DNA from: Candidatus Obscuribacterales bacterium
Lineage (GTDB): Bacteria; Cyanobacteriota; Vampirovibrionia; Obscuribacterales; Obscuribacteraceae
Direction: 5' to 3'
Assembly: GCA_965228855.1 (NCBI GenBank)
Contig: CBDDIJ010000003.1
Span: 1,856,001 to 1,920,000 of the forward strand
Length of the DNA: 64,000 nucleotides
Notes under the pieces: model-generated
Told to the model about the DNA's origin: nothing
The model's database searches: none
The model's input: the letters and a program-made list of their open reading frames with translations, nothing else
In this document: positions 42,305-48,277 of the stretch, in pieces
How positions within the stretch are numbered: the first letter of the stretch is position 1
Layout: the number at the start of each line of letters is the position of its first letter
Translations under genes and position numbers: made by a program

Positions 42305-45300
42305 ATGAGCAAGAAGATTGTACGGGAAACCAGCTATTTCTCACGTCGCTGGTTTGCAGTGATCGCCGCTTCGTGCGCTGCACTGGCATCAATGCAATCC
42401 GCACAGGCGTCGGAACGGCGAGAAGCCTTCCGTGATTTTCGAGACAACAATCCCGGACTTGCTCGCAACGAAGCACGCAGACTGTTCAACGAGCAATCGG
42501 GCGGCGTATTTCGTCCAATGTCCATCGAAACAGGTAGAAACGCAAACCTTCGGCACGCTATCGTGAACGAGAGTCTATCGCTCCCTCAGCTCGCGGAGCG
42601 CAACAACCGACACAACATCGAAAGCACACGCGCATTGCGAATTTCCAATCAGTCTACCCAAACGGTGGGAGTCTCGACCGTTCGTCTAAACACCGGAATT
42701 AACCTCGACCTATCCTCCACTGAGAGAAACATAACGCTTGGTCAGAAACTGTTTGAGGGTGTCGGCTCCGTTCAAATCACCGTTGGCGGTGAAACCAAGA
42801 CAGTCCAAGCAGGCTCCCAGGTAAGCGCGGCAGAGTATGTTGCGGTCAAGCAAATCCTTGGCGGCGGGTCGCAGGAAATCGGTCTGGACAATGCCGGCCG
42901 GGCTAACGGCGGTCGGTTCGACCTCGCATCGATTACAAATCCTGGCGATAAAATGCGAGCATCCAATTTTGTCCTCCCGGAGAATGTCACCACATATGGT
43001 GACTTCTCGCGTGCATCAGATATTCGTTTGACAGGTGATCTCGATAACCACGGCTCCATTTATGCGATCGCGAGCGAGAAACGCGGCCACAGCGGAACAA
43101 TCCATGCGGATGATATAACGAACCACGAGGGCGCTTTGATTTCATCCAACATCCCTCGAGATCTGGGGCGCGATCTGGGCGCACACGCAAAGCGCGTTGA
43201 TCTAGGGCTGGACGCTTCCGGCGACCTGTTGAACTATGGAACAATTTCGTCGTCCGGCAGTCTCACCCTAACCGCCGGTAGTGGCAATATAACAAACACG
43301 GGTCACGTCGAATCAACGGGCGGCGATATCACTTTTAACGGTTCAGATGCAGTTTTGACCGTTAACAACACAGGTGGAACGGTCGTTGCAAACGGCGGCG
43401 CGATTGGAATTCGTGACGCCTCTTACACGGGTGCGGCTAGCACGTATGTGAGCGGTGGAGATTTTCTCAGCCGTCAATTCAACACAAACGCCGGTCAGGG
43501 AACTACGTACGTCGATGTTAACAGCATCTCCGGACTCGTCAATCAAATCGGAAACGCAGCTCATGTCGAAGTGGCCGGCGGCAACTTAACGATAGGAGAA
43601 GTATGCCTGACAGGCGATCCTACCTATCGAAATCAGACCGGCGCAATTCAAATCACAGGCAACATAAGCGTCGCCGAGGCGCTTACGATAATTGCTAGAA
43701 ACGACATCTTTATAGACAACAACGTCATTATTTCGGCCGGAAATGCTGCTCAGGGATTCAATGTCAATCTAATCGCAGGCGCAAACATCATCGCCACGCT
43801 CGGTGGCGCAGACAGCCTCGTGCTGCCTCCATTGCCGGCAAGTTCGCAGCTGGTAACCTTTGATGGGGCATCTGTTGATGGCGGCTCGATAATCTTCGGC
43901 AGCAACACGCAGATTAATACACGCAGTACTAACATAGGCAATACCAATGGCGGCAGCGTATTGCTCGCCGCTTTTGCCGGCACCAATGGCGGTGGTGGAT
44001 TCATCGATGCATCCTCAACGACAATTTTCACAGGTGGCCGCGGAACTGGCGCAAATGGTTATGTTGATGTCATCGCAGGCGCACAGAACGGCACTGCAAT
44101 TTCGATGGGAACAATAATATCGACTGGCTCAACTGGAGGCGGAGGCGGCGTCAATATCACGACCGCGCAGCCACGCAGTACAAATGGAGATCCAGTTTCG
44201 TACGGTATTAATGGACAGTTGCTTTCAACTGACTTCATAGTTCCCGGCTTGACCGTCACTCCAACAGCATCTGTAAACCTTAAAACTATGCAGGCTTACG
44301 AGTCGATCAGCGTGAAAGCCGGAAATCTGCTTAGCACCAGCCCAGCCACTACCTTGCAAAGCACGAACGGCTCTGTCGGTTTGCAGACAGGGAACTCGAT
44401 AAATCTAGGCAGCGACATCGTCGGTAACAATGTCGTGATGATAGCCGGCAGCGACATCAATATAGCAACTCAGGTCAGCACCAGTGGCGGTGCCGGGCTG
44501 GTATTGATTCAAGCTGGAGATCAACTTTCACTTAGTGGTGTAATATCAGCGCAAAATGATGTAAGCGCTATCGCCTCCTCTATTCAACTGAGCGGCACAG
44601 GCTCAGTGGGCTCTAACAACGGCGATATAACCCTCTCATCTACAAACACGATAATTGGCGGGCTCACTACCCTGGTCAGCGCGCCAAACGGCACGATAAC
44701 CATGTCCAGCGCAGCAGGCAACATTGGAGTCAACTCCGGATTGAAGATGCGCATAGACGGTCAATCATTAAATGCGACCGCTGTTGCCGGTTCAGTATTT
44801 ATTTCTGATATCGGGGGCATCGACGTAGCCAGCGCTACAGCCTCGAATAGAGTTGAAATCTTCTCAGTTGACGGTCTTTCGAACAGCGGTCTGATTTCCG
44901 GAGACATCGTCAATCTTCAATCAACAGCTGACGCGATTACGTTGAATGCCGACGTGGTGGCAGGAACAAGCGCCACATTGAAAGCAAACACTGATTTAGT
45001 CACAGCGGCACCAGCCAGAGTAACAGCTCCTCAGCTCTATTTGAGCGCCACATCCGCAGATATAGGAGGTGGAGGTTTCGCATTGCCCTTTAGAATCAAC
45101 GCTGACAACCTCGTGGTCAGCACACCGACCGGCGGAGCAATCATAAGTGACTCCGACTCCTTAAATTTCGGCGGAGGAAGCACCTTCGTCAACACGTCCC
45201 TGATCGCAATCGCAAACGACGTGATTTCAAACACGAGCATTATCACTGGGAACAGTGTGTCTCTAGCATCGCTTAATTCAACCGTTAATGTCACCAACAC

Positions 45301-46996
45301 CATCAACGGAACAACTTCGGTAACGCTTCAGGCCAACTCGACCATTACGAACTCGAACATTTCGGCGCCTGTCAATACCGAGTTCCTTTCACTCGGATCG
45401 ACCGCTGGTGATGTGGGAACGACGTCCGCGCCGTTCGTGAGCGGAGCCTCCAGAACAGCTGCAGTCGCCTTCAATGGTGATGTCTATCTATCGCTCACGA
45501 ACAACAACGCACGTGTTTCGGGTTCCGCTTTCGGAACATTTGATGCCACCGCCAACGGTTCTCTTCAAGCCCTGAATATCAGCGGCGTCGATGTTCGTCT
45601 GCAAGCAGACGGTGCACTCACGACAGGCACTGGCAATACTGTCACCGCTACGAATCTGCAACTGGTGACCACCGGCGACGTCGGCGAAAATCTCGCAAGC
45701 GACTTCGTTATGAACGCTCAGAACGTTGATATCGCTGCTGGTGCTGCAATATTCGTTGCAAACACAAGTGCAACGCCAGTCACACTGAACAGCGCAGTCT
45801 CGACAGATACGCTTGCTTTTGCGGCTCAGAATGCCAATCTAACGAGCTCCGCCAACTTCTCGCAGAATGAAATCTACCTGCAAACTGGCGGAGTGTTTAG
45901 CCTCTCCGGCAATCTGCAAAACAATGGGGTCATCTCACTCACGTCCGCAGGTGCAATGACGAACGCGCAATTCACCGGAGCAATCTCCACCGACCGCCTC
46001 GCTCTTGAATCAACGAACAGCACGATTGGAACCAACAGCGCATCACCATTTGTTATTGCTGATGGAACAGCCAACATTATCCGCGCGAACAGCCCTGGAT
46101 TAGGTGGAATCTTTATCCAATCTCTGACCACCGATGAAATTGCGTTGACCGAAAGCAGTTCAAATCTTGATGTAAGCTTCGCTGCAGCAGGACCGCTTCG
46201 CATCATTGGCGATATCACGTCAGCAAACGGCAATGTCAACTTGTCGAACCAATCAGGCACTCTGACCGTTTCCAACGGAGTGACTATCTCAGCATTCGAC
46301 CAAATCAATTTGATCAATTCCGGGACAAATAAGAAGACTTCCAAAATTGCAATCGAAGCAGATGCCAATATCGTGACGAACGCCAAAACTGCGGGTCAGG
46401 GCAACGTCACAATCCAATTAGGAGCGCCACAAACGAAGATAGTTTCTAAACCACCGAAGAATGTAGTCTTCGTGGAAAATAATGGCGGCACAGTTGAGGT
46501 CCGAGGCAAAGGTCTCAGGGCTGCAGCGCCTGTAAACACCCTGACCGCTGACGGTGCGACCGTGTTAATAAGCAATGGCATAAACTCTAAGAACCTCACT
46601 CTAGGCGGCAATGTGCAAATTACTGCCGACCCGCAAGTTTCAGTTCCAACACAAAATATAGTCATCGTCAACACCACCACCGGCGGTGACCTATCCGCTT
46701 CGACAGAGCCCTCAGGTTCGATTATTGTAATTGGATCATCCTCATATCTTTCTGATGCAGGTTCGATCATGATCACTTCTGGCGCAAGTTTTGACTTGTC
46801 TACTTCCGTGAACCTATCAATTTCGCCAGCAGCGACGACAATATCTGGAACGAACCTCACGGTAAGCTCTCCGTCAGTCTCAGTCAGCATGCCTGAACCA
46901 ACCACCATCAACTTCGGTGTCGGACCAATCGGGAAAAATGGTATCAAGCGCGGTCAACACGCAAGACACAACAAGAGCCCCAGAAATGGGAAATAG
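42305..46996 (+). CDS. large secreted beta-helix/filamentous-haemagglutinin-like repeat protein
   Basis: signal peptide; long Gly/Asn/Thr/Ser/Ile/Val-rich degenerate repeats (e.g. NxGxI, GxVxLxA). Confidence 0.75.
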   Translation: MSKKIVRETSYFSRRWFAVIAASCAALASMQSAQASERREAFRDFRDNNPGLARNEARRLFNEQSGGVFRPMSIETGRNANLRHAIVNESLSLPQLAERNNRHNIESTRALRISNQSTQTVGVSTVRLNTGINLDLSSTERNITLGQKLFEGVGSVQITVGGETKTVQAGSQVSAAEYVAVKQILGGGSQEIGLDNAGRANGGRFDLASITNPGDKMRASNFVLPENVTTYGDFSRASDIRLTGDLDNHGSIYAIASEKRGHSGTIHADDITNHEGALISSNIPRDLGRDLGAHAKRVDLGLDASGDLLNYGTISSSGSLTLTAGSGNITNTGHVESTGGDITFNGSDAVLTVNNTGGTVVANGGAIGIRDASYTGAASTYVSGGDFLSRQFNTNAGQGTTYVDVNSISGLVNQIGNAAHVEVAGGNLTIGEVCLTGDPTYRNQTGAIQITGNISVAEALTIIARNDIFIDNNVIISAGNAAQGFNVNLIAGANIIATLGGADSLVLPPLPASSQLVTFDGASVDGGSIIFGSNTQINTRSTNIGNTNGGSVLLAAFAGTNGGGGFIDASSTTIFTGGRGTGANGYVDVIAGAQNGTAISMGTIISTGSTGGGGGVNITTAQPRSTNGDPVSYGINGQLLSTDFIVPGLTVTPTASVNLKTMQAYESISVKAGNLLSTSPATTLQSTNGSVGLQTGNSINLGSDIVGNNVVMIAGSDINIATQVSTSGGAGLVLIQAGDQLSLSGVISAQNDVSAIASSIQLSGTGSVGSNNGDITLSSTNTIIGGLTTLVSAPNGTITMSSAAGNIGVNSGLKMRIDGQSLNATAVAGSVFISDIGGIDVASATASNRVEIFSVDGLSNSGLISGDIVNLQSTADAITLNADVVAGTSATLKANTDLVTAAPARVTAPQLYLSATSADIGGGGFALPFRINADNLVVSTPTGGAIISDSDSLNFGGGSTFVNTSLIAIANDVISNTSIITGNSVSLASLNSTVNVTNTINGTTSVTLQANSTITNSNISAPVNTEFLSLGSTAGDVGTTSAPFVSGASRTAAVAFNGDVYLSLTNNNARVSGSAFGTFDATANGSLQALNISGVDVRLQADGALTTGTGNTVTATNLQLVTTGDVGENLASDFVMNAQNVDIAAGAAIFVANTSATPVTLNSAVSTDTLAFAAQNANLTSSANFSQNEIYLQTGGVFSLSGNLQNNGVISLTSAGAMTNAQFTGAISTDRLALESTNSTIGTNSASPFVIADGTANIIRANSPGLGGIFIQSLTTDEIALTESSSNLDVSFAAAGPLRIIGDITSANGNVNLSNQSGTLTVSNGVTISAFDQINLINSGTNKKTSKIAIEADANIVTNAKTAGQGNVTIQLGAPQTKIVSKPPKNVVFVENNGGTVEVRGKGLRAAAPVNTLTADGATVLISNGINSKNLTLGGNVQITADPQVSVPTQNIVIVNTTTGGDLSASTEPSGSIIVIGSSSYLSDAGSIMITSGASFDLSTSVNLSISPAATTISGTNLTVSSPSVSVSMPEPTTINFGVGPIGKNGIKRGQHARHNKSPRNGK

Positions 46997-47059
46997 GTTT
47001 AAACGGGCACAAATCAACCTGATATATTAGATAGAGATGACTTAGAAGATGGAGCGCCT

Positions 47060-48277
47060 ATGCGAAAACGGTCACCTGGTCACCTTGCGACAGTTATAGC
47101 TTTGCTCGCAGCTTTCAGCTCCACCGCTCTATTACAGGCGGACGCGCGTCAACTTGTCACCGGCTCGCAAAACACCGAGCGCACTAATAAATTAACCGGC
47201 GAGATTCGCTGGCACCGTTCTGTCGGTCAGGCGCAGGAAGACGCCAGGCGGGAAAACAAACTCGTTTTCTGGGTCAATATGTTAGGCACGCTCTCAGGCG
47301 CCACTTGAAGCGCCGGCAATAGCCTGAGGGCCGTGAGCCTCTCACAAGAACCGGCATTCTCCTATTTGAAAAACTATTTTGTCTGTGGATTCACCGACAT
47401 AACCAATCAGGGATACGTGGGAACGTCCGGCAGGCACGAGCGCCAGGGACAGGCGACCGCCACCACGAATGGCGCCGGTCCTCACAACATTCAGATGTTC
47501 ATGCTCGCAAGCGATGGAACCGTTCTCCACTGCCTCCCCGGCTATTGGGACCCACGCGACCTCGCAAAAGAAATGCAGTTCGCATATCAACTTAACAAGG
47601 TCTACGCAGACACCACGTTGAGGCGAAGCGAGAAAGAGCAGCTGTTTAAACAGATGCAAATGAAGCATATCGAACAGCACCCTCCGCAAATGGTCAGACG
47701 CAGCCATATGCAGGGTTTCGATCAACAATACGAGGCGCATTATAAGCTAAACACATCCGACGCCATCCTCGACGCGGCGCTCGCCAAACAAGGAATGGCT
47801 GCCACCGGTCATCCGCCGGGTGAAGCGTTTAAAACCTGCGATGTGCTTATGCACGAGCGCATGGCAAAACGTCCTTTTGTCGCCTTCAGCAGATTCGACG
47901 TCGAGCGCTTCAGCGACTATGGGAAGCCGCATTACGACAAAAACGAGGACCAGATCGACGCATATTCCGGTCGCGAGGTTCGAGATCATCATGACGCTCC
48001 GACAATCGGCGACGCCAGCCAGGGTCGTCGCATGACGCAAGAGCATCAAGCGGCCAACGATGGACAGTCTCATTCAACGCAGTGGGGAGAGTCCGGTTCT
48101 TCAGCCAACGGCGGCTGGGGCGGCAATCAGACATCGCCGGCGGCAACCGGCTGGGGCGCTTCTTCCCGCGCAGCAAACACGACCTGGGGCAACAACACCA
48201 CCATGGCAGCGACTAAAGCGAAGAAACAACAGCAATCGTCTAATGTCAACACGAATTGGAACAAGAAAACTCGCTGA
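47060..48277 (+). CDS. candidate selenoprotein (thioredoxin-like/SelN-like), 405 aa with in-frame TGA at 47306-47308
   Basis: track ORFs 47060-47308 and 47333-48277 share one frame, separated only by TGA plus 8 sense codons; SECIS-like hairpin follows. Confidence 0.7.
47312..47355 (+). promoter_or_regulatory. putative bacterial SECIS element
   Basis: GCCGG/CCGGC basal stem; TGAG-GGC/GCC-T-CTCA upper stem with bulged U; apical loop CGUGA starting 24 nt after the UGA. Confidence 0.6.

Follow-up and report, generated by a model that had tools for sequence, protein, structure and literature searches.

An interrupted reading frame and its features

The window, which is the whole 64,000-nucleotide stretch of DNA that was analysed, contains at positions 47060-48277 a 405-codon frame whose translation is interrupted solely by an in-frame TGA at codon 83. 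The original prediction described an 82-residue ORF (47060-47308) and a 314-residue ORF (47333-48277) as sharing one frame, separated only by TGA 47306-47308 and eight sense codons. This arrangement was recovered: the eight codons specify SAGNSLRA, the joined translation matches, and the residues around the TGA read A-T-U-S-A-G-N, bearing out a T-U rather than a C-U motif (U, selenocysteine, Sec). Features of the gene are as follows.

47060-48277 (+): whole gene, 405 residues with TGA read as Sec; the true stop is TGA 48275-48277, and homologues are continuous across the internal TGA
47051-47054 (+): Shine-Dalgarno-like sequence GGAG, 5 nt before ATG 47060
47060-47143 (+): predicted secretion signal peptide, with a basic start, a hydrophobic core and A-D-A before residue 29
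47177-47608 (+): predicted thioredoxin-fold domain, residues ~40-183, Thioredoxin_7/DsbH/DsbD-gamma/AGR-like, spanning the UGA
47306-47308 (+): in-frame TGA, putative Sec83 within T-U-S-A-G, opening the helix that follows the first core strand
47325-47344 (+): SECIS-like element, the conserved upper half of the hairpin; its CGUGA loop (47332-47336) lies 23 nt beyond the UGA, and its energy is -7.6 kcal/mol
47333-47335 (+): GTG (Val92) in the hairpin loop, the probable false start of gene callers; GTG in 42/42 homologues
47468-47488 (+): near-invariant NGAGPHN loop, preceding strand E116-121 of the predicted model
47606-47983 (+): conserved helical C-terminal domain, with 18 invariant columns in 34 sequences
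47984-48274 (+): low-complexity tail made up of Gly, Ser, Thr and Asn, with WG occurring four times and NW at its end; missing from two close paralogues

The signal-peptide-like start claimed originally is present here and in most members of the family, a hydrophobic stretch following the Met in 39 of 42 homologues by our own heuristic, and on this sequence evidence export of the protein is highly probable. A second gene lies directly upstream (42305-46996, +), ending 63 nt before the first; it encodes a 1563-residue Gly/Ser/Thr/Asn-rich repeat protein, probably exported, with no Pfam match, and a homologue of it occurs near the family gene in only 7 of 85 loci. No conserved neighbourhood pointing to a substrate was found, the largest neighbour cluster covering 23 of the 85 loci.

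Conservation of the TGA codon and of the downstream hairpin

Homologous loci were collected from genomes, metagenomes and protein databases. Among 69 genome loci examined, 66 cover the site and 65 carry TGA there; the 66th is a C-U paralogue in which the codon is offset by one. Removal of near-duplicates from the genome set left 42 non-redundant loci. In metagenomes, Thr-TGA was found in all of the best 80 of 312 loci, so that the T-U family as a whole has TGA in 145 of 145 loci covering the site, at protein identities as low as 42%; owing to kinship among the genomes and loci, these counts overstate independence. The frame downstream of the TGA is conserved at the protein level across the 42 homologues.

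Fifteen full-length database proteins span the site, with 8 Cys, 3 Trp, 2 Ala, 1 Ser and 1 Pro. Homologues of both kinds sought, with Cys and with a conserved TGA, were recovered. The Cys homologues (for example P0015, P0134, P0173 and P0180) are single ORFs, and the clusters of two of them include members labelled Planctomycetota. Ser, Ala and Pro homologues show that the fold can be kept when no redox residue is present. A tree was built from 43 selected sequences; its deeper joins are uncertain because of long branches. Within it, a Cys homologue and a Ser homologue nest among T-U sequences, a modestly supported placement (87/92) that hints at Sec having been lost secondarily.

Selection on the RNA is most apparent just after the TGA. 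Over codons +1 to +13 the excess in synonymous codon identity reaches 0.39, compared with 0.03 elsewhere (12 vs 87 columns, 42 sequences; Mann-Whitney P 5e-8, a value that treats columns as independent), with Ala+8 encoded by GCC and Val+9 by GTG in 42/42. The hairpin first proposed, at 47312-47355, stood in part: RNAfold returns its bulged U and CGUGA loop, but only the upper half (47325-47344) is conserved, and no helix matching the lower stem above 90% pairing was seen in the 42 non-redundant homologues. What is conserved is a stem of 6 pairs topped by a loop that starts with CGUG, 23 nt after the UGA. Over 54 distinct sequences from both subfamilies (T-U and C-U) the stem is 94.8% paired, vs 31-64% when the register is slid, and the present gene and six others (7/54) show a shifted register with a 5-nt loop. 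A G-C to A-U compensation occurs in 12 sequences, all of the C-U subfamily, and counts as one change between subfamilies, not 12 events; it is present although the T-U and C-U peptides differ. Fold energy alone is no better than chance, with z = -1.15, -0.99 and -0.69 in three windows and 22-43 of 200 shuffles folding as well.

Published bSECIS limits are a loop of 3-9 nt, G in its first two positions, a spacing of 16-37 nt and an energy <= -7.5 (legend of Fig. 2A in PMC13188914). Applied by our own script, these limits as worded in that legend (PMC13188914) include the present gene (-7.6, spacing 23, loop 5) and 34 of 42 homologues, vs 83 of 1337 true TGA stops. Scanning 18,410 TGA codons with open flanks across the whole genome returned 25 CGUG-loop hairpins. 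The four with a spacing of 23 come from the family's own four genes, a result that is partly circular because the pattern was derived from them, and a TlpA-like selenoprotein gene was found independently in the same scan, with a CGUG loop at spacing 26.

Selenocysteine machinery and related genes

SelA, SelB, SelD and tRNA-Sec are all encoded in the host genome above curated cut-offs (selA 520 bits, selB 267.5, selD 371.5, tRNA-Sec 73.5), and the sole TCA-anticodon tRNA among 74 was called SeC by ARAGORN. Across 61 genomes, which are kin, the family is present in 30, and all 30 have selA over the cut-off, with tRNA-Sec in 29 and selD in 29. It is present in 0 of 26 selA-negative genomes, 7 of these 26 being from the same taxonomic family (completeness 58-96%). 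Another five genomes have selA but not the family, one of them having the C-U form, and selA is found in 29 of 36 genomes of the same taxonomic family. The host's named relatives, sharing 79-99% protein identity with it, belong to the Obscuribacterales, which are non-photosynthetic members of the cyanobacterial phylum.

Three genomes are worth separate mention. G340 and G344 have selA over the cut-off and neither a selD match nor a family member, the tRNA-Sec match in G340 being marginal. In G333 (L053, L232, L233) the family gene is frameshifted with an altered SECIS region, selA lies in two frames around an N run, and both selA and selD run up to the end of a contig; Sec use may be decaying here together with the family gene, or the assembly may be poor.

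Six Sec genes were found in the host genome, four of them of the T-U/C-U family. G000:C3:3379891 (-, L023) and G000:C5:1052858 (-, L022) are intact T-U paralogues of 50-51% identity that retain T-TGA-SA(G/A)NSLRAVSLS. G000:C3:1338742 (-, L024/L169) is a distant paralogue of the C-U type, reading DDRFC-U-TNAR; its CGUG-loop hairpin is likewise at 23 nt, and it has many truncated database relatives, one labelled Planctomycetes. Within its subfamily, TGA occupies the site in 16 of 18 loci (16 loci in 15 genomes), and the remaining two represent a non-Sec paralogue that lacks the hairpin. The remaining two Sec genes belong to known families, MsrA (AAG-U-FWG; G000:C2:2345996, -, L200) and a TlpA/ResA-like U-x-x-C protein (WSMT-U-HSC; G000:C5:1078754, -, L201), which shares the CGUG loop; both have hydrophobic N-termini. 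A related thioredoxin-like gene with Cys and no UGA or hairpin (G000:C5:355043, -, L196) was used as a negative control. No Sec-type molybdopterin enzyme was found in the genome, the three family matches all being without an internal stop. Elsewhere in the genome, outside the window, 21 tRNA calls fall within 3.5 kb (G000:C3:724518-727973, -), unusual anticodons such as Ile-TAT and Cys-ACA included.

Decoding, predicted fold and possible relatives

Evidence on how the UGA is read can be weighed against several alternatives. The locus might hold two genes, a short exported peptide and a GTG-started protein, with GAGRG-CC-GUG serving as RBS and start and not as a SECIS. The GTG is indeed invariant and preceded by GAGAG or GAGGG, and 253 of 268 protein-database profile matches start after the UGA site, mostly at +6, +9 or +10, while 9 N-terminal fragments end on the Thr immediately before it; splitting of this kind by annotation had been foreseen. 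Several observations nevertheless argue against two genes. The GTG lies within the loop and is poorly served, as noted from the start, by a GAGG merely 3 nt upstream and inside the stem, compared with GGAG at 5 nt for ATG 47060. In the C-U subfamily GAGAAC precedes the CGUG loop, whose spacing is unchanged, and the eight codons between TGA and GTG vary synonymously (Ser AGC/AGT/TCA; Ala GCC/GCT/GCA/GCG) while still specifying the same amino acids. A cut at this point would part the first thioredoxin-core strand from its helix, and the Cys homologues run through it as single ORFs. Homologues encoded as two separate genes in variable frames had been named as grounds for rejecting the original prediction; the comparison came out in favour of one gene, and two genes are now very improbable.

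Still less probable, to the point of being negligible, is a pseudogene whose TGA replaced a Cys or Trp codon through a nonsense mutation or assembly error. Such a case does occur in this genome: a beta-carbonic anhydrase gene (G000:C5:1258618, +, L199) has TGA at the Cys codon of its HxxC motif, where 12/12 homologues, one of them 98% identical, have TGC or TGT, so that this TGA is a strain-specific nonsense change or an assembly error. For the present gene that explanation is refuted by conservation, given the 145 TGA loci, three paralogues in the same genome and the protein-level constraint downstream. Reading of the UGA as Trp or another standard residue, through code reassignment or leaky read-through, is scarcely more credible than two genes. 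It draws on the W at the site in three database proteins (P0014, P0057 and P0135), but loci L048 and L084, near-identical around the site to P0014 and P0057, carry TGA in the DNA, and those W are most likely gene calls made under another code; the DNA of P0135 was not checkable. Moreover, TGA is an ordinary stop in 1337 of 4460 genes of at least 200 residues (rough gene calls, this genome), consistent with the original view that there is no global code change, and the family tracks selA. The other grounds for rejection named originally, a lack of Sec machinery and homologues with Trp, Arg or Gly, likewise came out in favour of the prediction. SelB-dependent decoding of codon 83 as Sec is, on these sequence comparisons, very likely.

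The locus resembles bacterial Sec-UGA/bSECIS recoding, as outlined in the available text of PMC13188914, in its in-frame UGA, its 5-nt loop with G second and then U, its 23-nt spacing, its 7-pair stem of -7.6 kcal/mol and the full machinery. Nothing in the mechanism differs; the lineage is unusual in that no Sec-type molybdopterin enzyme was found in this genome. By every feature that could be tested on the sequence, the gene appears to work like a standard bacterial SECIS selenoprotein.

An AlphaFold2 model (pLDDT 94) has a thioredoxin fold running across the UGA, and, as originally proposed, the UGA falls at the redox position, Sec taking the place of the first Cys in the predicted model. 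The Sec column aligns weakly (E 0.05-0.1) with the first Cys of CHWC in 3ira and of CPHS in AGR2. The related domains Thioredoxin_7, Thioredox_DsbH, DsbD-gamma and AGR2-3 (PF13899, PF03190; PDB 3f9u, 3ira, 3ph9) have C-x-x-C or C-x-x-S, whereas the present protein has U-x-x-G, is 13-15% identical, carries a long insertion before NGAGPHN and has the extra C-terminal domain, for which no clear structural match was found in PDB. Dithiol thioredoxins (C-x-x-C or U-x-x-C) have a resolving Cys three residues on; that Cys is absent here, Gly being at +3 in 37 of 42 homologues and Ala in the others shown. By analogy with the general fold, the NGAGPHN loop may correspond to the cis-Pro loop of thioredoxin and would then face the active site.

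We favour a single gene for a likely exported 405-residue thioredoxin-fold protein in which UGA83 is very likely Sec and which would act as a single-selenol redox enzyme outside the cytoplasm, a reading with a probability of a little under 0.9. SelB and Sec-tRNA would bind the CGUG-loop hairpin 23 nt downstream of the UGA, leading to Sec insertion at the attacking-Cys position of the predicted fold. The selenolate would then attack an oxidised sulfur (disulfide or sulfenic acid) on a periplasmic or envelope client, chosen by the conserved C-terminal domain, and an external thiol would resolve the mixed selenenyl-sulfide, the partner Cys three residues on being absent. The TlpA-like protein could be the re-reducing partner. 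Taken by itself, single-selenol chemistry on an envelope client with external resolution is somewhat favoured on the model. Its main functional rival is a selenoprotein in which Sec is a metal ligand, sensor or binding residue and not a catalyst of thiol-disulfide exchange. The missing resolving Cys, the Ser, Ala and Pro variants and a C-terminal domain rich in conserved His, Asp, Glu and Arg would suit such a role, as would the presence of UAS and AGR domains among the close folds of the thioredoxin domain. UAS and AGR domains are largely non-catalytic binding modules. Against binding or sensing stand the canonical attacking position of Sec in the predicted model and the many selenoproteins that, in the sections available of PMC13188914, are homologous to thiol oxidoreductases or have redox motifs; we consider it the less likely role, at well under even odds.

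The family appears to be uncatalogued. It had no match among the Pfam and NCBIfam families tested. Table 1 of the 119-family 2026 inventory in PMC13188914 has no row fitting by name or domain, rows without a motif being set apart by name or domain alone, and its three UxxG rows were rejected as methyltransferase or rhodanese families (PMC13188914). The VPGUxxT thioredoxin-like (seleno)proteins NF041382 and NF041383 share a thioredoxin-like N-terminus, with weak similarity in a few homologues (E 0.005-0.07), but have another motif; homologues score 13-16 bits vs cut-offs of 275 and 350, and the present protein has no match at E 10. Literature searches returned no account of the family, nor any of Obscuribacterales using Sec.

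The original prediction went further and called the protein SelN-like, the UGA context resembling the SCUG region of selenoprotein N; a wider resemblance around the site is possible. SELENON, as described in the text available from PMC12839072 and PMC8967691, has an SCUG motif with Sec462 and Arg466 (+4), a membrane anchor and an EF-hand. Likenesses are a Sec-bearing thioredoxin domain that faces away from the cytosol, as predicted for the present protein, and a coding-region hairpin just after the UGA, called the SRE in SELENON (PMC12839072, PMC7474598, PMC8967691, within the portions available). The present protein differs in having T-U-S and not C-U-G, Asn and not Arg at +4, and a heuristically predicted cleavable signal instead of a membrane anchor; an EF-hand or other Pfam domain had no match at E 1. 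The SCUG motif is absent from the present protein, and the SelN-like label is not established. The distant C-U paralogue, which by the same descriptions shares Cys at -1 and Arg at +4 with SELENON, fits better and is, from sequence, the better candidate for a SelN relative. Eukaryotic SelN is absent among the matches listed in the homology searches (one list holding the best 120 of 352). That the T-U family and its C-U sister subfamily form a bacterial branch of the selenoprotein N lineage is a tentative proposal, which we regard as doubtful.

The cyanobacterial phylum was listed as without Sec in an early survey, according to the part available of a review (PMC9312934), and 0 of 18 Vampirovibrionia entries are named as Obscuribacter in the portion available of the BSepDB genome table (PMC13326102). 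The present data indicate wide use of Sec in Obscuribacterales, and the family, often in 2-5 copies per genome, brings with it a motif (T-U-S-A-G) and a combination of domains that are both new. Hundreds of truncated 'hypothetical protein' database entries are corrected as a result, and the predicted solubility of the protein, together with natural Cys versions, makes both the redox question and the SelN link directly testable. If kinship with SelN were true, several exported enzymes related to SelN (4 of 6 Sec genes here) would be the main reason for these non-photosynthetic relatives of cyanobacteria to retain Sec machinery, the post-UGA coding-region hairpin of animal SELENON could descend from a bacterial SECIS as a relic, and the family would offer a soluble model for a muscle-disease protein of poorly known chemistry.
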